This document shows positions 128-39,996 of a stretch of 39,996 nt of DNA, piece after piece (the first letter of the stretch is position 1; each line of letters opens with the position of its first letter). The DNA lies in IMG/VR virus record IMGVR_UViG_3300034523_000094, positions 1 to 39,996 of that record. One strand, written 5' to 3'. A program made the position numbers and the translations under genes. The notes under the pieces are model-generated. The model searched no databases. It saw nothing but the letters and a program-made list of their open reading frames with translations, and was not told where the DNA came from. Origin of the DNA: a virus.

Positions 128-148
128 GACCCTATTCCGCAGAGGATC

Positions 149-184
149 AAAACCGCATCAGTTCAAAAGGACTTATGCGGTTTT
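149..184 (+). promoter_or_regulatory. Inverted repeat AAAACCGCAT / ATGCGGTTTT (10-bp arms, 16-nt loop) just upstream of the small terminase gene. Could be a terminator-like hairpin or part of the packaging site.
   Basis: The arms at 149-158 and 175-184 are perfectly complementary, flanked by an A-run and a T-run. Confidence 0.3.
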
Positions 185-220
185 GCGCTTTTGTTCCTTG
201 GTTCCTTTGGTCCTTTCTCC
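181..220 (-). repeat. 8-bp-periodic array, five units on the minus strand: GGAGAAAG GACCAAAG GAACCAAG GAACAAAA GCGCAAAA
   Basis: Read from the sequence. Same unit family as the arrays at 27632, 33946, 34988 and 37741. Confidence 0.5.
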
Positions 221-22530: not shown

Positions 22531-22919
22531 TGCGACAGCAGATGGCCCTCGGCGAGTTCGTGTTCGGGCTCGCCACCGGGTTTCCCTACGAGCGCCTCGA
22601 GCGCAAGACAACGGGCGGCTGGGTCGACCTCGATATCATCAGCAGCAAGCCGCTCTCGCACCAGACCGGCCAGGGCCTCGAGGAGCTGCGCCTAAGCGGC
22701 AAGGCGCAGCTCGAGGCCGGCATGCTGGCCGTCGACGAGCTGCGCGCCATGGCCAACGCCCGCAAGCCCTACACCCTGGTCGATGGTATCGGCCGGGTGT
22801 GGGGCCGCTGGCGAATCGACAACGTGAGCGAGCAGCAGCAGCGGGTGCTCGATGACGGCACCGCCACGCTGCTGGAGTGGACGCTCGAGCTGCGGGAGTT
22901 CGTGAATGCGACGGGTTAG
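22530..22919 (+). CDS. Tail protein U (P2 gpU-like)
   Basis: MALGEFVFGL...GRWRIDNVSE... is typical of gpU. It follows the tape measure gene. Confidence 0.75.
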   Translation: MRQQMALGEFVFGLATGFPYERLERKTTGGWVDLDIISSKPLSHQTGQGLEELRLSGKAQLEAGMLAVDELRAMANARKPYTLVDGIGRVWGRWRIDNVSEQQQRVLDDGTATLLEWTLELREFVNATG

Positions 22920-23127: not shown

Positions 23128-24147
23128 ATGGCCATCGGATACACGCCAGCGGTCGAGATCTACGGCGCGAACGCGGCCTTGATCAACGGCCGGCTGATCG
23201 ATTGGGAGCACGTCGACGCGGCGGGCGTCGAGTCGGATCAGCTGAAATTGACCGTCAACATCGAGGGGCTGGAAGGCCTGCCGAGCGTCGACGGCAAGAT
23301 CGGCCTGCGGGTGGGCTACGAGGAGACCGGCCTCGTCGACAAGGGCGAGTTTGTGGTCACGCGCACCATGCCGCAGCTGTTCCCCGCGCAGCTTCTGATC
23401 GTCGCCACGGCCGCCCCGTTCAAGGTGGCCGACGAGACCGGCTTCAAGGCGCGCCGGTCGGCCAGCTACGGGCCAACCACCCTCGGCGCGATATTCCGCG
23501 AGCTGGCCACCCGGCACGGCTTCTCGCCGCGCGTGGCGCCCGAGCTCGACGCGATCGTGATCGACCACGTCGACCAGTCCAACGAAACCGATATGGGCTT
23601 CCTGACCCGCCTCGCGCGCCGCTATGACGCGGTGACGAAGCCGGTCAATGATCTGTACGTGCTCGCGCGGCGCGGCCAGGTCAAGTCGCTGAGTGGCAAG
23701 CCGCTGCCGCCGGTGACGCTGTCGGTCACGAAGGACAACCGCCCCGGCGCGCGGTCCTTCATCGCCGCCCGCATCGACAACGACAGCCGGATCCGCTTCA
23801 AGGGTGCGCGCACGGTCTGGTGGGATGGATCCGCCGGCAAGGAGGTGCGCGTCGAGGCCGGTACCGAGCCGTTCAAGCAGGTGCGCCAGCGCTACCAGAA
23901 CGAAAGCGAGGCCCGCGCAGCAGCCAAGGGCGAGCACAGCAAGGTGCAGCGCGAGGCGGCAAAACTGCGGATCGATTGCCCCGGCAATCCGGCGTTCGGC
24001 GCCGAGGGGCTGGTCGTGCTCGATGACAGCTGGCCGAGCCATATGCGCGGCACCTGGTCGATCGACAAGGTGACCTCGAGCGGATCCCGCGCGCAGAGCT
24101 ACCGCAGCACGCTCGAGGCGAGTTACCCCGACGGCAAGCAATCGTGA
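23128..24147 (+). CDS. Late control protein D (P2 gpD-like tail/baseplate hub protein)
   Basis: 339 aa, last gene of the tail operon, with gpD-like sequence (DETDMGFLTRLARRYDA). Confidence 0.8.
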   Translation: MAIGYTPAVEIYGANAALINGRLIDWEHVDAAGVESDQLKLTVNIEGLEGLPSVDGKIGLRVGYEETGLVDKGEFVVTRTMPQLFPAQLLIVATAAPFKVADETGFKARRSASYGPTTLGAIFRELATRHGFSPRVAPELDAIVIDHVDQSNETDMGFLTRLARRYDAVTKPVNDLYVLARRGQVKSLSGKPLPPVTLSVTKDNRPGARSFIAARIDNDSRIRFKGARTVWWDGSAGKEVRVEAGTEPFKQVRQRYQNESEARAAAKGEHSKVQREAAKLRIDCPGNPAFGAEGLVVLDDSWPSHMRGTWSIDKVTSSGSRAQSYRSTLEASYPDGKQS

Positions 24148-24151
24148 CACC

Positions 24152-24186
24152 CGCCCCATGGCTTCGGCTGTGGGGCGTTTTTTTTT
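24152..24186 (+). terminator. Strong intrinsic terminator after gpD (long stem with TTCG loop, then T9)
   Basis: CGCCCCATGGC-ttcg-GCTGTGGGGCG followed by nine T residues. Confidence 0.8.
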
Positions 24187-25486: not shown

Positions 25487-25852
25487 TTATTTGCCTCCGT
25501 TGGCAGTCACTGGCGCCAGTTCATAGTTGCAGATCGTGTCGAACTCGCCCCAATAGGTGCCTTCCCCGTCGCAGTCTTCATCGTCAAGGTCCTCGTCGTC
25601 TGGTCGATGCCGGGCGTCTGTTTGCTCGCAGGTGTGGCTGATCTCCCCGGCAATGATCTGCTCGACTTCCTCGTCCCAGCCATCGTCGAGGTAATGCGCG
25701 ATGATGTTCTGCGAATCGGCATCGCGCTCGTCGGCCGACCTGTAGTAGATGAACTCGGCGCCATTAGGGTCGAAGGTGAAGTAGCGGAATTCGGCGGATG
25801 GGCGCCGGCTTCGCTCTATGACGCCTTTCTCTTTGGTGTCGACTGGTTTCAT
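25487..25852 (-). CDS. Highly acidic hypothetical protein (121 aa, 32 Asp+Glu against 12 Lys+Arg)
   Basis: The ORF fits tightly within the operon. The composition was counted by hand. Confidence 0.55.
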   Translation of the reverse strand: MKPVDTKEKGVIERSRRPSAEFRYFTFDPNGAEFIYYRSADERDADSQNIIAHYLDDGWDEEVEQIIAGEISHTCEQTDARHRPDDEDLDDEDCDGEGTYWGEFDTICNYELAPVTANGGK

Positions 25853-26626: not shown

Positions 26627-26938
26627 TCACTTCTGCGCCTGCAGCCGCCGGCGCAACTCGTCGAGATCCTCGACCTCGAATTTCCCCTCGCCCCGCTTGT
26701 ACTTCTCGAACAGGTCGTCGATCGCCTCGAGGAGCAGGTACTTGACCGGCGTCGAGTCGCTGGTCATGTTTTTCAAGTCCTGCAGCCCCTTGTGGTAGCG
26801 CACCGGCGCCAGCAGCGGAATCTTCTTTTCTTCGCCATCGCCCGACACTGCAGCGCGCGCCTTTTCGACGTGCGGGCGCTCGATGGTGGGCGCGCCTGCG
26901 CGGCTGGGGCGGGCGGTGCTCAGCTTCCCGTCGGTCAT
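26627..26938 (-). CDS. Small partition partner of ParA, probably a ribbon-helix-helix centromere-binding protein (ParG-like)
   Basis: 103 aa with an ATGA overlap with the parA stop. A disordered N-terminus is followed by a segment IPLLAPVRYHKGLQDL...VKYLLLEAIDDLFEKY, compatible with a strand-helix-helix fold. Confidence 0.5.
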   Translation of the reverse strand: MTDGKLSTARPSRAGAPTIERPHVEKARAAVSGDGEEKKIPLLAPVRYHKGLQDLKNMTSDSTPVKYLLLEAIDDLFEKYKRGEGKFEVEDLDELRRRLQAQK

Positions 26939-27585
26939 TGCAGCAGCTCCAGCAGTTCGGCGGTGACGGCTTCGATCTCGAGGCGCGCCTTGTTGTCGGC
27001 CGGCAGGTCCATGACGCTCTGCCCGCTGCCAATGTCGCGCACGTAGGACTGCCGCTGGCAGGTCTGGCTCGACAGGATGGGCAGCTCGAAGGCCTCGAGC
27101 GCTTCGCGTGCGGTGCGCTCGATCACCGTGCCCGGTACCGCGCGGGCGACCATCATCACGGCGTGAGGGTGGCCGTCTGCGATCTCCTGCCGGTCCTTTA
27201 CCAGTTGCACCAGGTCGCTGCAGGCCCATATGTCGTACTGGCTCGGCTGCACCGGGATCAGCACCAGGTCGGCCGCCTTGATCGCTGCGGCGGCCAGCTC
27301 GCTGATCTGCGGCACGCCGTCGACGACGACGAAGTCATAGCCGCCCGCCACGCGGGGCAGGTCGCGCGCCAGTTGCTTGCCCATGGCCACGCACGGGATC
27401 ACGCCCGGGTCGCCCTCGGCGCCCTCCCGGCTGGCCGCCCAATCGGTTGCCGAGCCTTGCGGGTCGAGGTCGACCAGCAGCACGCGCTTGCCGTGGGTGA
27501 CGGCCAAGCAGCTGGCCACGTTGACCGCGCTCGTCGTCTTTGTGGTGCCACCCTTCTGGTTGAGCACCGAAATTACCTTCGCCAT
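26935..27585 (-). CDS. parA: ParA/Soj-type partition ATPase (small, type Ib-like)
   Basis: Deviant Walker A MAKVISVLNQKGGTTKTT, plus VLLVDLDPQGS and DFVVVDG. An AGGAGGG RBS precedes the ATG at 27585. Confidence 0.85.
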   Translation of the reverse strand: MAKVISVLNQKGGTTKTTSAVNVASCLAVTHGKRVLLVDLDPQGSATDWAASREGAEGDPGVIPCVAMGKQLARDLPRVAGGYDFVVVDGVPQISELAAAAIKAADLVLIPVQPSQYDIWACSDLVQLVKDRQEIADGHPHAVMMVARAVPGTVIERTAREALEAFELPILSSQTCQRQSYVRDIGSGQSVMDLPADNKARLEIEAVTAELLELLQ

Positions 27586-27631
27586 CGCTGGCCCTCCTGG
27601 TGGGTTATCAGATCCAACGGGCACAGATTAG

Positions 27632-27679
27632 CCGCAAAGGAACAAAAGAGCAACAGAACAAAAGAACAAAAGAACAAAC
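27632..27679 (+). repeat. 8-bp-periodic array upstream of parA: CCGCAAAG GAACAAAA GAGCAACA GAACAAAA GAACAAAA GAACAAAC. Candidate centromere/operator.
   Basis: Read from the sequence. It lies 47 to 94 bp upstream of the parA start codon. Confidence 0.55.
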
Positions 27680-27998
27680 AAGCGGACGCGCCAGCGTCCA
27701 ACCTTGTCCGCCTGAATAGCCCCGTCCTTTCTCCCGTGGCCGCAGCCCAGCAGCGGCGCGGGTTTCCCGCGCCATAAACAAGCAGCGCGAAGCGCTGGTC
27801 CTTTTGGTGCATGCCCTCTGCCGCGTCCTTTCTGACCATCTAGCCCGCTGCCGCATCCTTTCCTTGCTGGTGGTTGAGCAGTCGCCGCCCCTTCGCGCTC
27901 GCCTACTTTGCCGCATGGCAAAGGGTGTATGCCTGCGCAGCATCCATACACCCTATACCCTAACAAGTGCATACACCCTCACCCCTAGCACAAGATAG

Positions 27999-28070
27999 GG
28001 CCGCAGGTGTATGCACCCCTGCCCCATTCTATACGTATAGAATGGGGCAGGGGTGCATACACCTGCGGCC
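27999..28070. repeat. Perfect 72-bp palindrome (36-bp arms, centre TATAC|GTATA). Candidate telomere resolution site (telRL).
   Basis: The arms were checked base by base. The core CCATTCTATACGTATAGAATGG resembles the remembered N15 telO CCATTATACGCGCGTATAATGG. It lies 135 bp upstream of the protelomerase gene. Confidence 0.8.
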
Positions 28071-28204
28071 ATATCTACCACTGCGCGAGTTCGTGCCCTA
28101 TGGCTTGGGGTGTATGCGATGAGCGAGTAGGGCTTGTGGTGCATAGTTGTAATGTGTAGAATCTGCGCTAGGGTTTACGGTGTATGCCTAAAGGAGGGCG
28201 AGCC

Positions 28205-29770
28205 ATGGGTGGGGAATCAAGACAGAAGGTCGAGCTGGGCGAACTGATCGAGCAGCTGCTAAAGGACGTGCGGGCGATCGACGGCAATGCGGAGCTGAGC
28301 AGGGGCGACAAGACCAAGCGTCTGACCCGGCTCGCGGCCAGGCTGAAAAACACGCTGTTCGAGGACCGCCGGCGCAAGGAGGAGGACAAGCTCGCGGCGT
28401 CGAGTTATCGCCGGTACCTGACCACCATCCGCAAGGCGGTCACCGCGCAGAACTGGCGGCACCACTCGCTCGAGGAGGCGATCGGCCGGATGGCCAAGCG
28501 GCACCCGCGCTGGGCCGAGCAGCTCGAGGCGATGGGCGCGCATGCGCAGATCAGCGAGGTGCGCCTCGCCCACCGCGACCTGCTGGCCGAGGTGCGCCGC
28601 GCTGGCGACTCTGACGCCTACGACGATATCCGCGCGATGAAGCTCGACCACGAGATCATGCGCCACCTGACGCTGCCAGCCGCGACCAAGGCCGACCTGG
28701 CCGACGAGCAGCTCGAGCGCATCGAGGAGCGGTCGACGAATACGGTCGAGATCAATTACCACTGGCTTATGGCGACGATCGACGGCCTGCTGAGCCAGCA
28801 GCAATTGCGCGCCGATGGGTCGGCCGCGCCCTACTTCTCGCACCTGGCGCTGGGGCTGGCGCTGGCCACCGGGCGGCGCGAGATCGAGGTGCTCAAGCTG
28901 GGCCGCTTCAAGAAGGTGGGCGAGTTCGAGCTCGAGTTTTCCGGCCAGGCCAAGCGGCGCGAGGGCGTCGACTACAGCGAGACCTTCCGCATCTATAGCC
29001 TGGTCAGGGCCGACGAGGTGCTCGAGGCCTTCGCCAAGCTGCGCGCGCTGCCCGAGGTGCTCGAGCTGCAGCACCTGTCGAACGTCGAGGTGAACCGCCG
29101 CGTGGCCAAGACGCTGAACACGCTGACCAAGCGCGTTTTCGGCAGCGAGGAGCGGGTTTTCAAGGACAGCCGGTCAATATGGGCGCGGATCGTTTTCGAG
29201 CGCTACTTCGGCCAGGATGCGCGCTGGAAGAAGGTCAACGAGGACGTCTTCTGGCAGGAAATGCTCGGGCACGAGGGGATGAAGTCGCAGATCCACTACA
29301 AGGCCTTCAAGATCGACTATGTCGAGCCGGTGGCCACCGCCGGGGCGGTACCGGGCAAGTGGGCGAACCGCCTCGAGGCGCTGCAGGCGCTCGACGAGCA
29401 CGAGCGGATCCGCGCGAGCTCCTCGCTGTACCGCATTCACCAGTGGGTGAAAGAGACCGTGAAGGCCGCGCCCGAGGCGCGGATCTCGCAGAAGGCGATC
29501 GCCACCAACGTGGGCAGCTACCGGCCGAACATCAAGGAATATCTCGAGATCGCCGCCGAGGCGCTCGCCACGCCGAACCATTCGCTAGAGGCGGTCGCGC
29601 TCGAGGTGCCCGACCAGGTCGCCAAGGCGAAGCCGCGAATGGTGGCGCATCTGCAGGAAAGTGGGCTCTATCGGGCAACCGCAACGATCAACGGGGTGGT
29701 GGTCGCAACGGCCGAACACGCCGACCGCATGACCGCCTTGGCCGAGGCCTTCAAGAAGGCAGGCGGTTAG
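28205..29770 (+). CDS. tel: Protelomerase (TelN/TelK family)
   Basis: Collinear with remembered N15 TelN: KVELGELIEQLLKDVRAIDG...GDKTKRL..ARLKNTLF, FSGQAKRRE, VFKDSRSIWARIVFERYF...RWKKVNEDVFWQEMLGHEG...QIHYKAFKI (Tyr nucleophile context). An AAGGAGGG RBS precedes the ATG at 28205. Confidence 0.9.
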   Translation: MGGESRQKVELGELIEQLLKDVRAIDGNAELSRGDKTKRLTRLAARLKNTLFEDRRRKEEDKLAASSYRRYLTTIRKAVTAQNWRHHSLEEAIGRMAKRHPRWAEQLEAMGAHAQISEVRLAHRDLLAEVRRAGDSDAYDDIRAMKLDHEIMRHLTLPAATKADLADEQLERIEERSTNTVEINYHWLMATIDGLLSQQQLRADGSAAPYFSHLALGLALATGRREIEVLKLGRFKKVGEFELEFSGQAKRREGVDYSETFRIYSLVRADEVLEAFAKLRALPEVLELQHLSNVEVNRRVAKTLNTLTKRVFGSEERVFKDSRSIWARIVFERYFGQDARWKKVNEDVFWQEMLGHEGMKSQIHYKAFKIDYVEPVATAGAVPGKWANRLEALQALDEHERIRASSSLYRIHQWVKETVKAAPEARISQKAIATNVGSYRPNIKEYLEIAAEALATPNHSLEAVALEVPDQVAKAKPRMVAHLQESGLYRATATINGVVVATAEHADRMTALAEAFKKAGG

Positions 29771-30076: not shown

Positions 30077-33000
30077 TCACCGGGCGGACGCCTGGAGAAG
30101 TTTCTCGGCAAAGCCAAGTGTCCGATTTATTGACGCATCACTGAGCCGGCCACTCACGAAGTCCCGAACCACCTCCGGCGCCAGCGCCCCCACCAGGCGC
30201 GACAGCGGTATGCCGGAAGGGCGGTAACAGCGAGAAGCCAAAGCGAGTAGATGCTCGGTCACTGCCAAGGGATACTTTTCATCTGTGTCTGTACCCTCAC
30301 AATGCAAAGTGTCACTTTCGCTGCAAGCCACGGGCGCCGGGGCCTGTGGCTCGACGGGCAGGGCTTCGGGGGCTTCCTTGGGCTGGTAGTCACTGGCCGC
30401 TTCGTGCGTCGTCAACGAGTGGGCGCCGAGCGCCTGGCGACGCAAGACATAGGCCATCACGAACGACCATCGGTCGGCATTGATCGAGAACAGGTTCCGC
30501 CCATTGCTCGACCGCTTCTCGACCGTGAGGCCGAACCGCTCGAGCATCGACTTGACCAGCGTCGTGGCGCAGACCCTGGCGCTGGTGCTGTGCAGGTGGC
30601 GGCCGACGCGCAGCGCGTTGTAGGCATCAAGGGCCTGCTGGCTGGCGGTGACCTTGGCGAGCACTTGCTTGCATTGCTCGGCTGAGAACTCGCCGGCGCC
30701 GGTGTAGCGATCGAGGCCGAGGGTCTCGAACAGCTCGACCAGGAAGGCGCGGGTGGCCGTCTTGTAGCGGTGCTGGGTCAGAACCACGCGCGCTTTGCGC
30801 TGGGCTTCGTCGTAGGCCTTGGCCTGGGCTTCCTCGGCCTGCAGCAGCTCGAGGGCGACGACCTTGGCGATGCCGCGATCGTCGTAGAAGGCGACGTCGT
30901 CTTCGGTGGGCTCGAGCACGCCGAGCTGGTGGGCCAGGTGGTAGCGGTCGACCTGGGCACTCTCGGTCTCGCTGCGGACTTCCTGACGGTTGAGGCGGCC
31001 GAAGGTCTCCTCGTCGGGCACCTCGACGCTGGTCAGCAGATCCATGCGCTTGGCGAAGACGAGCGCGCCGGCGTGCTTGCGGTTGCTGCGGCTCTCTTTC
31101 GTGCGCTCGGGGTCGTCGAGATCCGCCCGGCCGACCTGGTAGCCGTCGGCGATCAGCATCAGCAGCAGGTTGTTGGCGAAGTCGTTGCGGGCCTTGTTTT
31201 CGGTGGTGACGCTGGTCAGGTACAAATGATCAAAAGCGGTTTTCTTCCTGACGAAGCGCGCCTCGCCGGCATCCTCCTCGAAGGCGAAGGTGATCCCGTC
31301 GAGCTCCATCAGGCCGCGATAGATGGCCTCGGGATCCGTGGCGCGCTGGGCTGAGCTGTGACCGATCCCGACCAGGTACTCGCGCGCGGTACGGTCACGG
31401 CGCAGCATCTGGATGGCGTCGGAGGGGCTGACGGTGTTGCCGCTGAACAGGCCGACATGGCGCTCGAAGTGCGGCGTGGTCATGGAAACGCCCGAGCTGA
31501 TCGCCGGCGAGTAGATCAGGACGTCGTACTTCACCGCCTCGGCGTTGGGGCTGCGCAGGAAGGCCTCGACATTCGGGTCGGCCTTGCTGTCGGCGTGCAC
31601 CAGGAGCATGCGCAGCGGCTTGCATTCGCCGTGCTCGATGCGCTCCTCGATCAGGGCGGCCATTTTCTTGGCCGACTCGGCCGAGTCGTTGGCGACCAGA
31701 ACGCGCTTGCCGGCGCAGATCCAATCGAGCGCGACCTGCCAGGCGGTCTCGTCGTCGGTGTGGTTGACGCGGATATGATCGGTCGGGCCTACGACCTCGA
31801 GGATGGTGATCGGCTGGCCGGGGCGGGCGAGCTCGCAGAACTCGACCACCGTGTCGTTGGCGTCGGCGTCGCAGAGCAGCACGCGGCGCGCCGAGGCGAC
31901 CGCGTCGAGCAGGGCATCGAACACGCGCACGCGGCCGTCGACCGGGCCGGTGGCGGTGTGGCTGATCACCTGGCTGGCTTCATCGATGCAGAGGGTATCG
32001 ACGGTGGTGAACCACGAGCGCTCGTCGGTGTTGTAGAACTTCGGATGGGTCAGCGAGTTGACGCAGCAGGCCAGGTGCGAGACGTCTCGCATCCACGCGG
32101 CCGAAACCTGCTGGTAGTGCTGGATGTTGAGGCGCGAGGCGGCGTCGTCGAGCAGCGAGACGCGGTGGGCGATATAGGCGGCTTTCGGCGCGGCCTGCAT
32201 CAGCGGGGCGATCAGTTTCTCGGTTTTGCCGGAGCCCATCGGCGCGCGGCTGATGATCATGCCCTCGAGGGAATCGACCAGGTCGGCGAAGTGCGGGGGC
32301 AGCTCGATGCCGCCGTGCGCAGCGCGCACGCCTTCGACGCGCAGGTGCTGCACGTGCGGCTTGGCCAGGGTGGCAGCGGAGAAGCCGCGCAGCTCGCGGG
32401 CCTGCTGCAGCTTCTGGTCGGCCAGCCACTTAACGAAGCGGCGGATCTTGAAGCGGTCGACCTCGACGCCGGCCGGGATCTTCTTCTCGACCATGCGCAG
32501 CACTTCGCGGCCGGTGTAGCGGATCGGCACCAGGAGCATGCCGGCGGCGACGGCCGACTTGGCGGCCTTCTCGGCGGTCAGGCCGGAATAACCGAGGCGC
32601 TGCAGGCAGTAATCAAACCAGTCTTTCTCGGCGCGCAGCACGCTGTCGCGGGCGCGCAGGGCCTTGGCGGTGGCGGCCAGGCCAAAGGCGACGTGGTAGT
32701 CGTTCCAGTCGGTCGGCCCCTTGCGGGCGGCCTTGAACGCGGCCAGTTCTTCACCGCTGAACCCGACGACAGGCGCCCGGTTTTGCGCGCGCAGCTCGGC
32801 AATCTGCTGGGCGCTGCAGCCGAACAGCTCGAGGCTGGCGGCGAAGTTGGGGACGATGGCCGGGTGCTGCAGCTCGCGGTGGATCTCGAGGCCTGCTAGC
32901 ACGCCGGCGTTGCCGGCCTGTGGCTTCCACTGGTCGTTGTCGGCGGCGTTATGGAAGCGCCAGGCCGGGTAGTGCTTGGCGTACTGGCGCAGCACCTTGC

Positions 33001-33934
33001 CGAGGTTGTCGACGTTGAAGGTCACCACGACGGCCACTTCGTTGCCGGCCTCGAGCTCGGCCAGGTAGACGCTGGCGCCGGTGGCGAAGCCTTCGACGCT
33101 GTAGCGGCGGTCGGCGGTCTCGAGGTCGCCAAGGATGCAGTGGGCGCCGTCCATCTTGACGCCGGTGCCCTGCAGCTTCTTGTCGGCATAGAGGCGCTGC
33201 AGGCCAAGGAACACGCCGGAGATATTGAACAGCGGAACGGCGGTAAACTCGCCGTGACTGTCACGCATACGTTGCATTTTGAAGCGTGACGCGATCGCCG
33301 CGATCTGCTTCGCCTGCAGGTAAGGGGCGCTGCCGTCCTCCTCGCCAATGACCTCGACGAAGCCCTTGCGGATCTTGCCGCCGGCTTCGTACTCGAACTC
33401 GTGGCGCCCGCCGCAGTGCCAGGCGGCCTCATAGGCCAGCCGCTCGCGGTGGATCCGCGCCTCGGCTTCGGCCCGGCGCTGCTCGGCTTCTTTCTGCGCG
33501 GCTTCGCGCTTGGCGCGCTGTTCTTCCTGACGGGCCAGCCATTGCTGGTGCTTCTCGCTGGTGACGTTGCCGCCTTCGCGCTTGTAGAGCTCGGCCAGCG
33601 CTGCGAGGCCCGACCAGGTCGCGTGACCATAGGCCGGGTTGTTGTTGTTGAAGGTGAAGAAGGGATAGTCGAAGTCGTCGGCGCGCTTCGTGTCGCCCCA
33701 CGCCATGACTTTGCCCCGGTGGATCTTGTCGGTTACGCCGTCTTTGCCCTTGGGGCGGGCCTTGTCGCCGCGCAGGCCGATCTCGTTGCGAATCGCTGAC
33801 CAGCGGATGCCGACCGATGCCGCCACGTCGGCGATATCGGCGTCGAAAAAGTCGATCAGTGACCAGGGGTCGGAACGGAACCGCTCGGCGTAGAACCGGG
33901 CCAGTGCGCTCGCGTCGTCCTTCGTGTTCTGCAT
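30077..33934 (-). CDS. repA: Large multidomain replication protein (primase/helicase, N15 RepA-like)
   Basis: 1285 aa, with a Walker A PMGSGKTEKL in the central region. Its size and its position next to tel and par match the N15 RepA arrangement. An AAGGAA RBS precedes the ATG at 33934. Confidence 0.7.
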   Translation of the reverse strand: MQNTKDDASALARFYAERFRSDPWSLIDFFDADIADVAASVGIRWSAIRNEIGLRGDKARPKGKDGVTDKIHRGKVMAWGDTKRADDFDYPFFTFNNNNPAYGHATWSGLAALAELYKREGGNVTSEKHQQWLARQEEQRAKREAAQKEAEQRRAEAEARIHRERLAYEAAWHCGGRHEFEYEAGGKIRKGFVEVIGEEDGSAPYLQAKQIAAIASRFKMQRMRDSHGEFTAVPLFNISGVFLGLQRLYADKKLQGTGVKMDGAHCILGDLETADRRYSVEGFATGASVYLAELEAGNEVAVVVTFNVDNLGKVLRQYAKHYPAWRFHNAADNDQWKPQAGNAGVLAGLEIHRELQHPAIVPNFAASLELFGCSAQQIAELRAQNRAPVVGFSGEELAAFKAARKGPTDWNDYHVAFGLAATAKALRARDSVLRAEKDWFDYCLQRLGYSGLTAEKAAKSAVAAGMLLVPIRYTGREVLRMVEKKIPAGVEVDRFKIRRFVKWLADQKLQQARELRGFSAATLAKPHVQHLRVEGVRAAHGGIELPPHFADLVDSLEGMIISRAPMGSGKTEKLIAPLMQAAPKAAYIAHRVSLLDDAASRLNIQHYQQVSAAWMRDVSHLACCVNSLTHPKFYNTDERSWFTTVDTLCIDEASQVISHTATGPVDGRVRVFDALLDAVASARRVLLCDADANDTVVEFCELARPGQPITILEVVGPTDHIRVNHTDDETAWQVALDWICAGKRVLVANDSAESAKKMAALIEERIEHGECKPLRMLLVHADSKADPNVEAFLRSPNAEAVKYDVLIYSPAISSGVSMTTPHFERHVGLFSGNTVSPSDAIQMLRRDRTAREYLVGIGHSSAQRATDPEAIYRGLMELDGITFAFEEDAGEARFVRKKTAFDHLYLTSVTTENKARNDFANNLLLMLIADGYQVGRADLDDPERTKESRSNRKHAGALVFAKRMDLLTSVEVPDEETFGRLNRQEVRSETESAQVDRYHLAHQLGVLEPTEDDVAFYDDRGIAKVVALELLQAEEAQAKAYDEAQRKARVVLTQHRYKTATRAFLVELFETLGLDRYTGAGEFSAEQCKQVLAKVTASQQALDAYNALRVGRHLHSTSARVCATTLVKSMLERFGLTVEKRSSNGRNLFSINADRWSFVMAYVLRRQALGAHSLTTHEAASDYQPKEAPEALPVEPQAPAPVACSESDTLHCEGTDTDEKYPLAVTEHLLALASRCYRPSGIPLSRLVGALAPEVVRDFVSGRLSDASINRTLGFAEKLLQASAR

Positions 33935-33945
33935 GATGTTCCTTT

Positions 33946-33977
33946 GCACAAAAACGCAAAAGCACAAAAGAACAATC
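33946..33977 (+). repeat. 8-bp-periodic array immediately upstream of repA: GCACAAAA ACGCAAAA GCACAAAA GAACAATC
   Basis: Read from the sequence. It begins 12 bp from the repA start codon. Confidence 0.45.
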
Positions 33978-33979
33978 CG

Positions 33980-34007
33980 TTGACGCTGCAATGATGGGGT
34001 TTAGACT
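33980..34007 (+). promoter_or_regulatory. Candidate sigma70-like promoter pointing rightward (TTGACG, 16-nt spacer, TAGACT)
   Basis: Hexamers identified by eye. No plus-strand gene lies downstream. Confidence 0.2.
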
Positions 34008-34013
34008 GGCTGT

Positions 34014-34159
34014 GCTGAAGCGCTATGCCCCGATTTCCTCCTGCCCGCAAAACAGGGAAAATCTTCAACAGGGTCAAGCACTTGTGTTTTGTCCAGTTCG
34101 CCCACCAGCGACGTTTTCAGATCAGCCCCGAGGTTACCAGCCCCGGGGCTTTTTCTTTT
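34014..34159 (+). ncRNA. Speculative ~145-nt plus-strand small RNA between repA and cI, ending at a plus-strand-only terminator
   Basis: A promoter-like element lies at 33980..34007. A hairpin AGCCCCG...CGGGGCT followed by TTTTTCTTTT lies at 34124..34159. Confidence 0.2.
34124..34159 (+). terminator. Intrinsic terminator-like hairpin with a T-tract on the plus strand only
   Basis: A 7-bp stem (34124-30 with 34144-50) followed by TTTTTCTTTT. Confidence 0.45.
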
Positions 34160-34245: not shown

Positions 34246-34914
34246 TCATCGAATCAGGCCTTTGGCGATGCTCATGCGCATGCCGGTGACCAGCCCGATC
34301 ACCTTGAAGTTGCCGTCGACAGAGATCGGCGGGAACTGTGGATTTAACGGTCGAAGGTACCGCTGCGAACCGTCTTGGATCAACTTCTTGAAGGTCGGCT
34401 CGGCCGGCGTGACGGTGTAGCCGACCACCAGGTCGTTGGCCTCGGCTTCCTGTCGAGGATCCACGAAGATGACCGCCCCCACCGGGAAGGCCGGCCCGCT
34501 GGGGGCGTGCATGGTGTCGTCGCGCACCACCAGGCCGAACACCGCCCCGGGCGGATTGTCCGGTGCCAGCACCCAAGGCGTTCCGGTCGGAAGTCGTTCT
34601 ATGGCGGGGCTTTTAGCCCATTCAGCGGCCATTTCCCAAGGGATGACCGGCACCCGTTTTACCGTCTCGGCAGGCGCTGCAGGCGCCTGGGTTTCGCCGA
34701 GTGACTCCTCGATAAGCGCGTCGATAGTGGTGCCGAATGCCTTCGCCAATGCGTAGGCCGTCAGCACGGTGGGGACGCTCTTTTCCTTCTCGATGGCAGA
34801 TAGCGCGCTTGGGTAGACGACATTGTCTGCAGCGTCGCACAGGCGTTGGAGCGACCAGTGCTGCGCTTGTCGGCGCCGGAGTATCGCCGGCCCGATAGAA
34901 AACTTTTGGTTCAT
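34246..34914 (-). CDS. cI: CI-type repressor (HTH plus S24/LexA-like C-terminal domain), lambda CI-like
   Basis: The C-terminus PTFKKLIQDGSQRYLRPLNPQFPPIS aligns with the lambda CI segment [26 protein letters not shown]. The N-terminus is XRE-type HTH-like. The gene is divergent from the early operon. Confidence 0.85.
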   Translation of the reverse strand: MNQKFSIGPAILRRRQAQHWSLQRLCDAADNVVYPSALSAIEKEKSVPTVLTAYALAKAFGTTIDALIEESLGETQAPAAPAETVKRVPVIPWEMAAEWAKSPAIERLPTGTPWVLAPDNPPGAVFGLVVRDDTMHAPSGPAFPVGAVIFVDPRQEAEANDLVVGYTVTPAEPTFKKLIQDGSQRYLRPLNPQFPPISVDGNFKVIGLVTGMRMSIAKGLIR

Positions 34915-35061
34915 GGTGGCCCCTCTCAGTCCCTTTCTATTGTCCGTCCTGAATAGGCAACGTTTCCATTCAGAGTAGGCAAATCATGTTGCCTCTTTTG
35001 TTCTGTTCACAGAAAATGTCGCCATAACTACATTCAGACCCACAACGAGGGGAAAGGTGCT
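34915..35061. promoter_or_regulatory. Divergent immunity control region (candidate operators and promoters)
   Basis: AT-rich, and contains AGGCAA-n6-TTGCCT (34977..34994), CTGAAT-n13-ATTCAG (34949..34973) and TTCTGT-tc-ACAGAA (35001..35014). Confidence 0.55.
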
Positions 35062-35670: not shown

Positions 35671-36034
35671 CGCCCCGCTCGACCAGGTCGAGGAGCCCGT
35701 CGACCTCGAGGAGCTGGCACTCGACCTCGAGGAGCCGGCCCCGGTCAACGAGACGCCCGAGGAGCGCAAGCGCCGGCATGCGCGGATCCGCCAGCGCCGC
35801 AAGCGTCGCCGCGATGAAGCGGCCAAGCAGCGCGCCGCAGCGGTGCCGATCACTTTCGAGGCCTACAAGGGCACGCAGGCGGATCTCGCGCTGATCTGCG
35901 AGCTCGGTGGCTTCGAGGAGCAGGCCGAGGCCATCACGCTGATTCTACGCAACGTCGCGGATCTCGCGCTGCGTGACCGTCACGCTTTCGAGCAGTTCGT
36001 CAGCATCCCGTCACGCAAGGAGGCGCAGCAGTGA
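35663..36034 (+). CDS. Hypothetical early protein (acidic N-terminus, Arg/Lys-rich centre)
   Basis: ORF with a start/stop overlap with its neighbours. Confidence 0.45.
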   Translation: MTDAPLDQVEEPVDLEELALDLEEPAPVNETPEERKRRHARIRQRRKRRRDEAAKQRAAAVPITFEAYKGTQADLALICELGGFEEQAEAITLILRNVADLALRDRHAFEQFVSIPSRKEAQQ

Positions 36035-36342: not shown

Positions 36343-36595
36343 TGCCTGCGATCGGGTCGTCGACCTGCAGCTCGACATTGGCGCGGCCTTCATGGATGCC
36401 CGCGCCCGCCGCTGTGATGCCGTGGCCCTCGGCGATCGCTGGATCCGCTCGGGCTATAGCGAGTTGTCGGGGCTGTGCTCTGGCTGTGGTGGCCAGATCC
36501 ACCCCGGCCGCCTGCAGGCCGTGCCGACAGCGCACCGCTGCACCAAGTGCCAGGACGCACACGATCGCCAGGAGGCCGCCCGATGCAAACGCTAA
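36335..36595 (+). CDS. TraR/DksA-family C4 zinc-finger protein
   Basis: CSGCGGQIHPGRLQAVPTAHRCTKCQ matches the CxxC-x17-CxxC TraR/DksA finger common in phages. Confidence 0.6.
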   Translation: MPDACDRVVDLQLDIGAAFMDARARRCDAVALGDRWIRSGYSELSGLCSGCGGQIHPGRLQAVPTAHRCTKCQDAHDRQEAARCKR

Positions 36596-37428
36596 GCCTC
36601 TCGCGCTATCCGCGCCCCGCAAAACCCCGCCCTGCCCCGGTCACTTACTACGTGATCGACGAGCCGGTCGACCCGGTGCCGGTCGCTGCCGCCCCTCGCC
36701 GGGTGCCGGCGGTGACGACGCACGACCGCGCCGTCATGCGCGACCTGGTGCTCGGCGCCTTCCTGGGGCCGCAGCACTTCCGCGAAGATGACGGCAAGCG
36801 CGTGGCGGCCTACACCATCGAAAACACCCGTGACGTCGTTCCGGCGCGGATCCTCGAGGAGCGGGCCGAGTGCCCGGTCGAGGGTGCGGAGCCGGGGCGC
36901 CTGCCCACCGCTTACGTCGCCGCCCTGGCGAAAGGAACCACGCGCGTGATCGCCAGCGAGACCCGTCCGAAGAAGAAAAGCAGCATCCCGCTCGGGCCGC
37001 TGGCCTTTCAGGATGCCCGTATCGTCCGCGCGGTCGGCCAGCTCGCGCCGGAGCATCAGCACTGGATCCGCTACGCCTACGCCGACTCGCGTGCCTGGGA
37101 TGACGAGGCCGGCGCCGTGGTGGCGCTGTGGGCGCGCTACGAGCCGCAGCTCGGCAAGGTGCAGGCGAAGACCAGGCAGAAGGCCAAGGGCCTGGCGCAC
37201 CTCGCGGTGCAGGATGCGAAGCGCTTCGTGAATGCCGGCAAGGAGCTGCACGCCGCCTGCCGCCTGCGCGAGCTGCTGGGCGTATCGACGCCGAATTGGG
37301 ACCAGCACTGGTGCCCACGCTGGCAGGCGATGCGCAACGAGGTTTTTGCGATGGATCGGGACGCGCTGACTGCGCTCTGCAAGGAGCTGGCAGGCTTCCG
37401 GTTTGTGCTGATGGATCGGGGGTTGTGA
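36583..37428 (+). CDS. Putative late-gene regulator (antiterminator Q-like by position)
   Basis: It is the last large gene of the early operon and is followed by an AT-rich promoter-like region and two terminators ahead of the lysis genes. The similarity to Q proteins is not verified. Confidence 0.3.
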   Translation: MQTLSLSRYPRPAKPRPAPVTYYVIDEPVDPVPVAAAPRRVPAVTTHDRAVMRDLVLGAFLGPQHFREDDGKRVAAYTIENTRDVVPARILEERAECPVEGAEPGRLPTAYVAALAKGTTRVIASETRPKKKSSIPLGPLAFQDARIVRAVGQLAPEHQHWIRYAYADSRAWDDEAGAVVALWARYEPQLGKVQAKTRQKAKGLAHLAVQDAKRFVNAGKELHAACRLRELLGVSTPNWDQHWCPRWQAMRNEVFAMDRDALTALCKELAGFRFVLMDRGL

Positions 37429-37739
37429 TGACGCCTTGCTCGCAATGCGGGAGCCAGCCCGAGCGCCGTCTCGATCCGCAGACGGGGCGCAGGGTGTACG
37501 CCTGCCCGGGTTGCCGCCATCGCGGCGAGGTGACGACCTGCGAGGTCGCGGCGGCGGCCTCCTGGGAACTGATCAATGATCCCGATATGGATCGGCACAC
37601 GTGCAAGGCGGCCATGCTGCCGCGCTACTTCGAGACGGGCGGCAAGTGGGGTGCTCGTTGCCGTGGGTGTGGCCACGAGGTCGAGGGCTTCGGGAGCCTG
37701 CAGGGCGCCCGGGCTGGGTGGGCGAGGTCTATGCGGTAA
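37428..37739 (+). CDS. Cys-rich zinc-finger protein (four CxxC pairs)
   Basis: CSQCG...CPGCRH...CRGCGH. Its start overlaps the upstream stop codon (TGATG). Confidence 0.5.
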   Translation: MTPCSQCGSQPERRLDPQTGRRVYACPGCRHRGEVTTCEVAAAASWELINDPDMDRHTCKAAMLPRYFETGGKWGARCRGCGHEVEGFGSLQGARAGWARSMR

Positions 37740-37740
37740 G

Positions 37741-37812
37741 GCGCAAAAGAACAAAGGAGCAAAGGCGCAAATGCGGACAAGCGAAAAAGGCGAAAAAGCC
37801 TATTGCGCAAAA
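37741..37812 (+). repeat. 8-bp-periodic array of nine registers: GCGCAAAA GAACAAAG GAGCAAAG GCGCAAAT GCGGACAA GCGAAAAA GGCGAAAA AGCCTATT GCGCAAAA
   Basis: Read from the sequence. GCGCAAAA recurs exactly 64 bp apart, in register. Confidence 0.5.
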
Positions 37813-37831
37813 GTAAGGGATAATGTCTAAT
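37803..37831 (+). promoter_or_regulatory. Candidate late promoter (TTGCGC, 17-nt spacer, TCTAAT) in the most AT-rich segment of the genome
   Basis: Hexamers and spacing identified by eye. Confidence 0.3.
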
Positions 37832-37860
37832 AAGTGCTCTAATGCGATACATGCAAACCA

Positions 37861-37894
37861 AAGCCCCGCCACCGTGCGGGGCTTTGTCGTTTCT
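37861..37894 (+). terminator. Intrinsic terminator 1 between the early operon and the lysis genes (GCCCCGC-caccgt-GCGGGGC followed by TTTGTCGTTTC)
   Basis: A 7-bp GC stem (extendable with AAA/TTT) and a T-rich tail. Confidence 0.6.
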
Positions 37895-39869: not shown

Positions 39870-39996
39870 TCACGGGTGTGAAACTCGCGGGCTTCGCGCG
39901 GGTTTGGATCCGCGAGTCGGGTCCGTTCTTCCTTTCTCGAGGCCCTGCCGGCCTGCTTCGCTCGGCTGACCCCGCAGCCAGTCACGGCGGGGCCTC
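39870..39996. repeat. Copy of bases 1..127 (contig-end overlap)
   Basis: Identical on direct reading. Confidence 0.9.

Follow-up and report, generated by a model that had tools for sequence, protein, structure and literature searches.

The genome described here, that of a Pseudomonas-type telomere phage, carries arrays of 8-bp units at four places, beside parA, beside repA, in the late region and before terS. Comparison with relatives indicates that the arrays have co-evolved with each other and with the small protein encoded next to ParA, and this ParA partner is therefore most likely a centromere binder and a regulator of several promoters.

The window, by which we mean the whole stretch of 39,996 nt that was analysed, has a GC content of 67%. 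Its first 127 nt (1-127) are identical to its last 127 nt (39870-39996), and it is therefore a circular closed assembly of a 39,869-bp genome. Gene content and order (terS...parA, telRL, telN, repA, cI, Q, lysis) agree with those of VP882 and phiHAP-1, and on these sequence grounds the window is a complete VP882/phiHAP-1-like (Hapunavirus-like) telomere phage. At the DNA level the window is closest to Pseudomonas plasmids whose assemblies are head-to-head dimers of linear prophages, and the isolates that carry members of the partner family are Pseudomonas and Stutzerimonas; megablast against phage records gave no match. The relatives compared were four whole Pseudomonas plasmids, VP882 and phiHAP-1, together with IMG/VR loci for the partner (50) and for RepA (about 80). 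The main genes are as follows.

224: ATG of terS
26627..26938, minus strand: ParA partner, 103 aa, candidate array-binding protein
26935..27594, minus strand: parA, 219 aa, small Walker-type (Pfam AAA_31 4e-27, CbiA 2e-13)
28184-29770: protelomerase (telN)
30077-33934, minus strand: RepA, large
34246-34914, minus strand: cI-type repressor
36475-37428: Q antiterminator (Pfam Phage_antiter_Q)

The telomere-resolution site lies between parA and telN and is an 84-bp near-perfect palindrome (27993-28076, centre 28034/28035, core TATACGTATA), flanked by GGTGTATGC/GCATACACC repeats that span 27917-28187. Metagenome contigs from three runs stop exactly at 28033 or begin at 28036, which is the expectation for hairpin-ended linear prophages. 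The depth of metagenomic 'RNA-Seq' contigs is flat, and they are therefore uninformative on expression.

Arrays in an 8-bp register had been proposed from the sequence alone at five loci. Four of these are real; the fifth, at 34988-35011, contains one consensus unit and is discussed below.

27632..27679, plus strand: parA-proximal array, six 8-bp units
33946..33977, plus strand: repA-proximal array, four units
37741..37812, plus strand: late-region array, nine registers (four strong units, the rest degenerate)
145..220, minus strand: terS-proximal array, five minus-oriented units at 181-220

At all four the unit has the same architecture, a variable GC-containing core at positions 1-4 followed by an A-rich stretch at positions 5-8. 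CAAA sequences at exact 8-bp spacing form six chains of at least two units and three of at least three, against means of 0.31 and 0.0, respectively, in 300 dinucleotide shuffles. Block shuffles of 40 or 80 bp, which keep local AT-richness, gave 0.002 and 0 chains of at least three, and when periods from 4 to 15 were tested no chain of at least three CAAA was found at any period except 8. Self-similarity is maximal at lags of 8 and 16 in all four array regions, period-7 enrichment was sought and not found, and the units are not unspaced WATCACW heptads of the omega type. A log-odds scanner for four consecutive 8-bp units reported only 137-228, 27624-27687, 33938-33985 and 37725-37812 in the window, plus a weak match at 34047-34078. 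The motif is thus enriched far beyond chance in scans with shuffled controls, including those that preserve local composition. The arrays are A/T-rich intergenic tracts, and the statement that they are the only A-rich tracts of the genome is nearly correct: windows with at least 13 A or T in 24 comprise the four arrays, the tract at the early promoter, and two unrelated T tracts, one at 24163 (a terminator) and one at 25826 (coding).

The six units of the parA-proximal array are, in order, CCGCAAAG GAACAAAA GAGCAACA GAACAAAA GAACAAAA GAACAAAC. The array covers the -35 hexamer and spacer of a putative parA promoter and continues upstream, about 355 bp from the telomere-resolution centre.

27625..27653, minus strand: putative parA promoter, -35 TTGCTC at 27648-27653, 17-nt spacer, -10 TAATCT at 27625-27630

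This promoter is a weak match to consensus and was not called by a promoter scanner; its -35 TTGCTC is the reverse complement of a unit. Relatives have TTGTAC-17-TATATT at the homologous position and the geometry with the array is conserved. The position of the array is itself kept in at least 45 relatives, with a clade-specific core. Directly adjoining its distal end, at 27683-27700, is a GC-rich hairpin that resembles a terminator when read on the minus strand; all relatives examined have it at the same place.

ParA has the motif KGGTTKT at residues 12-18, its Pfam matches start at residue 5, and it has no N-terminal DNA-binding extension. The start of the partner gene overlaps the parA stop (ATGA, 26935-26938), so that the two are translationally coupled, an arrangement kept in all relatives. 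The locus therefore has the composition of a type Ib system, namely a small ParA, a small partner immediately downstream, and a repeat array over the operon promoter. The partner consists of a predicted-disordered, variable tail with an invariant R10-P11, followed by a conserved segment; in the AF2 model there is an extended segment (37-45), two helices (46-58 and 65-81), and a C-terminal helix. Sub-threshold matches to Pfam Antitox_RHH (PF20605), aligned on the second helix, occur in 32 of 34 partner-family members, with a best E value of 1.5e-5, and the match of the window partner is likewise under the gathering score. Pfam detected no ParB or HTH domain in the partner, and the monomer model had no Foldseek match in PDB or BFVD. 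When all chain sequences in PDB were searched with a profile HMM at E<=10, no RHH protein came up, and so no homology was detected to ParG, which we presume to be included in that sequence set. The class B and VP882 segments (QLKVLA-APKYHKGM and RLPVDI-PASYHRRL) are suggestive of the junction between strand and helix A in RHH proteins, for example RK2 ParD. Ahead of helix 1 the partner has a segment with the sequence pattern of an RHH strand, and it may adopt an RHH fold.

The repA-proximal array consists of GCACAAAA ACGCAAAA GCACAAAA GAACAATC and fits closely between two signals, starting one base past the repA Shine-Dalgarno sequence (repA ATG at 33934, minus strand) and stopping 2 bp before a divergent -35. 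The succession of array and TTGAC is conserved in three core classes.

33980..34157, plus strand: candidate small RNA unit, between repA and cI

The promoter of this unit is strong (TTGACG-16-TAGACT, 33980-34007) and is followed by an invariant block, CTGCCCGCWAAAC, at 34041-34053 and by a terminator hairpin with a T-run at about 34122-34157. Conservation of the promoter, the CTGCCCGCWAAAC block and the terminator over three core classes suggests a small RNA of about 140 nt. A search of the whole window against Rfam gave nothing at gathering score, so the small RNA matches no family, and a target search in the window with the CTGCCCGCWAAAC block returned only the block itself and no complementary target. 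The interval between cI and repA yielded no promoter for repA, which may therefore be read from upstream. In plasmids of the GTAC class the repA site is a divergent double array (L013 5900-5975, L014 33235-33310, L015 31181-31256), in which the minus-oriented units enter the first repA codons (ATG ACA AAC GTA CAA AAG).

In the late-region array, two copies of GCGCAAAA (37741 and 37805) are exactly 64 bp apart, as had been noted from the sequence. The second of these is the last unit (37805-37812) and overlaps a putative late -35, TTGCGC (37803-37808), for which the -10 is TCTAAT (37826-37831). The match to consensus is weak and the promoter scanner made no call; the late-promoter assignment is supported by positional homology with the VP882 late region, where TTGACA-18-TAGCAT is followed by TGCGATA and then a terminator.

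37859..37886, plus strand: terminator hairpin 3' of the late promoter, presumed Q antitermination target

Three arrays, then, overlap or abut -35 hexamers, those of PparA, the small-RNA promoter by repA, and the late promoter. As for omega, the arrays are located at several promoters including those of replication control and the par operon, on which they would presumably exert a regulatory effect.

The minus-strand units before terS are GGAGAAAG GACCAAAG GAACCAAG GAACAAAA GCGCAAAA, and two plus-oriented units of the same array (145-152 and 161-168) flank a small hairpin. The last base of the array is 3 bp from the start codon, the array occupies the cos-to-terS interval, and it is syntenic in relatives; no promoter was found beside it. 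This is the expected place of a cosB-type terminase site, and a conserved cos-like region is present just 5' of terS.

The parA, repA and terS arrays are in or next to leaders, in which the gene-sense strand reads UUUUGNNC, and the arrays could conceivably work in RNA as U- or A-rich leader elements, for example S1/Hfq sites or translational enhancers. We consider this highly improbable, since the late and small-RNA arrays are upstream of promoters and oppositely oriented, units of either orientation are found before terS and within the repA sites of relatives, the clade-specific cores point to a phage-specific reader, and there is no Rfam family match.

The fifth proposed locus, in the cI/early region, is of a different kind. 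As a candidate array, 34988-35011 fails the array scanners and its core is constant across clades; it corresponds to the early promoter with an operator palindrome.

34989-34994: early promoter -35, TTGCCT
35001-35014: palindrome TTCTGT-TC-ACAGAA
35012-35017: early promoter -10, GAAAAT

An alignment of the cI-cro intergenic region from 12 genomes identifies the locus as the early promoter with the palindrome within its spacer, and the T-rich piece is clade-invariant. Neither this alignment nor a scan of relatives revealed an array in the cI-cro region, although palindromes are present. Without an array at this locus, the proposal that occupancy by partition complexes is linked to the immunity promoter has no basis.

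Two other short motifs were observed. A shared motif of about 16 nt, TTGTCCGYCCTGAATAG, is present upstream of the parA array (27704-27722) and in the cI-cro region (34937-34955); the copy near the par operon may be a repressor-related site. Exact copies of the motif GTCCTTTCT stand immediately ahead of the terS start (210-218) and in the parA-to-telRL spacer (27724-27732 and 27825-27833), and the motif is also found at about 34920. With up to one mismatch allowed there are 11 copies, where 4.2 are expected, and several copies are located in the corresponding regions of VP882 and phiHAP-1, irrespective of array core class.

Conservation in related telomere phages had been suggested as a check, and each of the relatives analysed, whether an element of Pseudomonas, Vibrio or Halomonas or a metagenomic genome, has arrays at the four syntenic positions. 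A relaxed scanner, constrained only at unit positions 4-7 with the first three positions free, found arrays at all four loci in the Pseudomonas plasmids, in VP882 and phiHAP-1, and in some 20 genomes from IMG/VR, and a log-odds scan of complete genomes reported the parA, repA, Q-to-lysis and terS arrays and at most one or two more. VP882 (L016) has extra arrays of the same type at 22685-22724 and 35722-35777, and phiHAP-1 (L017) at 23789-23828 and 37273-37312; these are in accessory-gene regions of the two marine phages, with no counterpart in the window.

Within each genome the unit core is common to all four loci, and it differs between clades. It is GAAC/GCGC/GCAC in the clade of the window, GTAC/GGCC in plasmids of P. 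aeruginosa, P. monteilii and P. corrugata and in several metagenomic genomes, ACGC/GCGT/ACGT in three genomes, GCAC in one genome, and GTAC/GCAC in the phiHAP-1 type. When units outside the parA array were compared with parA-array core sets, the match was 0.40 to the set of the same genome and 0.17 to those of other genomes, a difference reached in 0 of 10,000 permutations; this test ignores relatedness, and the block structure by core class is plain. GCGC occurs often among the units of the window's late and terS arrays and never in its parA array. Judged by these comparisons, the four-locus arrays are a conserved, co-evolving feature of the whole phage-plasmid group.

These data bear on whether only the parA array is a partner site, the others being UP-like or A-tract elements, or sites for a host nucleoid protein, that are alike through composition. 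In favour of this, all of the arrays are A/T-rich and intergenic in a 67% GC genome and three of them are over or just upstream of -35 hexamers. However, the GC-containing 4-bp core shifts together at all loci between clades that share a host species, the strict 8-bp register is not that of helical phasing, and local-composition shuffles fail to reproduce it, and we regard the proposal as improbable. GAAC and GTAC classes are both found in P. aeruginosa elements, so that a host factor is unlikely to be the reader.

The arrays are very probably sites for a single phage-encoded protein, and several observations favour the ParA partner. A segment of the partner, putatively the one that reads DNA, varies with the core: EKKIPLLAP (and a KKIPGF variant) pairs with GAAC-type cores, EKQLKV[LI]A and EKQLKAIVP with GTAC/GGCC, TERVYFNG with ACGC, and KR[LV]P.D with GTAC/GCAC, although the map is not one-to-one, as the R-P-D and Q-K-L types are both found with GTAC. 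In L021, L024, L027 and L028 the partners are 70-80% identical overall, the EKKIPLLAP segment is kept, and the arrays are identical. Other proteins of the genome follow the core classes less well. The window ParA is 81% identical to one GTAC-class ParA and only about 62-67% identical to other GAAC-class ParAs, and identities of ParA, RepA, CII-like protein and TerS overlap clearly between core classes, with a marginal overlap for Q. The RepA of L012 is only 63% identical to that of the window, and the two repA arrays are near-identical.

An alternative, which we consider unlikely, is that another phage protein binds the arrays, whether cI, the CII-like protein, Q, RepA (at iterons) or TerS (at cosB). 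The position of the repA array adjoining repA would suit RepA, and that of the terS array, between cos and terS, is the place of the small-terminase site in lambda-like phages; against these and the CII-like protein stands the clear overlap of identities between classes, as does the marginal one against Q. For cI, whole-protein identity does separate the GAAC and GTAC classes, but its recognition-helix region takes three forms among GAAC-class members whose arrays are constant, and the cI-cro region, a necessary cI target, has palindromes and no array. Moreover, arrays of 8-bp direct repeats are atypical for HTH repressor dimers, and every one of these candidates leaves the array over the parA promoter unexplained.

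The probable reader of the arrays is thus the ParA partner, in the double role of centromere binder and operator protein. The earlier suggestion that it binds all five loci is strongly supported, on comparative evidence, by synteny, concerted cores and the tracking of partner segments at four of them, and does not extend to the cI/early locus. We infer that the partner binds each array and that each array would have centromere activity; a regulatory influence on repA, terS and the late region is plausible, its direction presumably being downward.

The resemblance to TP228 ParG, with its 8-bp spacing, and to omega that was proposed for these arrays is apt (PMC3130281, PMC3074150). ParG sites consist of degenerate 4-bp boxes, some direct and some inverted, with AT-rich spacers of 4 bp between them, each box being bound by one RHH dimer; the array upstream of the operon is also an operator, and the ParG tails contact the ATPase (PMC3130281). 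The same architecture of 4-bp boxes with regular 4-bp AT-rich spacers is seen here, with the 8-bp register in all four arrays, and in the TP228 ParF-ParG-parH system, too, a small ParA precedes a small protein whose tail is flexible. The core is ACTC in TP228 and GAAC/GCGC in the window, the sites form one block of about 160 bp there and arrays at four phage loci here, and the phage partner, unlike ParG, has an extra C-terminal helix and no detectable sequence similarity.

The RHH protein omega of pSM19035 has an unstructured tail, and the heptad arrays to which it binds at PcopS, Pdelta and Pomega work as operators as well as parS sites, so linking copy control and partition with other functions (PMC3074150). 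Contiguous short-repeat arrays at several promoters are common to omega and the phage system. The differences are that omega uses unspaced 7-bp heptads (WATCACW) in place of 8-bp units, belongs to a Gram-positive plasmid and not a phage, with no homology detected, and has copy-control and toxin-antitoxin genes as its targets, where the phage has late and packaging genes. A ParG-like site architecture deployed at several loci in the manner of omega seems a fairly likely description of the system and is the best reading of it.

The parallel drawn with N15 applies to layout only. N15 is a telomere phage-plasmid whose centromere sites, IR1-4, are scattered over the genome according to the passage in PMC7205306 that cites Ravin and Lane 1999, and in both cases the sites are not clustered beside the par operon. 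N15, however, has a type Ia, palindromic IR system, with a large SopA and an HTH SopB in place of a small ParA and a 103-aa partner, and single palindromic IRs in place of arrays of 8-bp units, and it belongs to an unrelated lineage (siphovirus, lambdoid). Far closer are VP882 and phiHAP-1, which have the same genome plan and arrays at the same places, and whose gp52 and ORF32, respectively, are homologues of the ParA partner at 38% identity; hosts and GC content differ, and the unit core there is mostly GTAC/GCAC. Within the library searched, no paper dealt with these arrays or with what VP882 gp52 does.

In the mechanism that we propose, the 103-aa partner would be a type Ib centromere-binding protein, probably an RHH dimer, whose flexible N-terminal tail contacts ParA. 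Each dimer would read one 4-bp core (G-A/C-A/G-C in the phage of the window), and neighbouring dimers, placed 8 bp apart across the A-rich spacers, would coat each array cooperatively. The parA array would serve as operator and centromere. The repA array, which abuts the small-RNA promoter, the late array, which overlaps the late promoter, and the terS array, immediately before the start codon, would be further partition-complex sites for the linear prophage, at which the partner would probably damp the small RNA and repA, the late genes and the packaging genes during plasmid maintenance.

Type Ib regulators acting at multiple promoters are already known from omega of a Gram-positive plasmid, as are dispersed centromeres from N15. 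Here the two ideas may meet, in widespread phage-plasmids of Pseudomonas, Stutzerimonas, Vibrio and Halomonas whose sites include lytic and packaging loci, and the natural cores (GAAC, GTAC, ACGC) paired with variant protein segments would constitute a ready-made specificity code. VP882, a much-used model of phage decision-making, has the same layout, and the prediction is therefore directly testable there. It is possible, although somewhat doubtful, that the partition protein of these Hapunavirus-like telomere phages is a genome-wide silencer that holds the late promoter, terS and the replication-linked small RNA off in partition complexes. If so, titration or loss of the protein, for example through copy-number change or induction, would lead to coordinate release of replication control, lysis and packaging. 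Lysis-lysogeny control would then have a further layer, not described before, in the group to which VP882, the quorum-sensing model phage, belongs.
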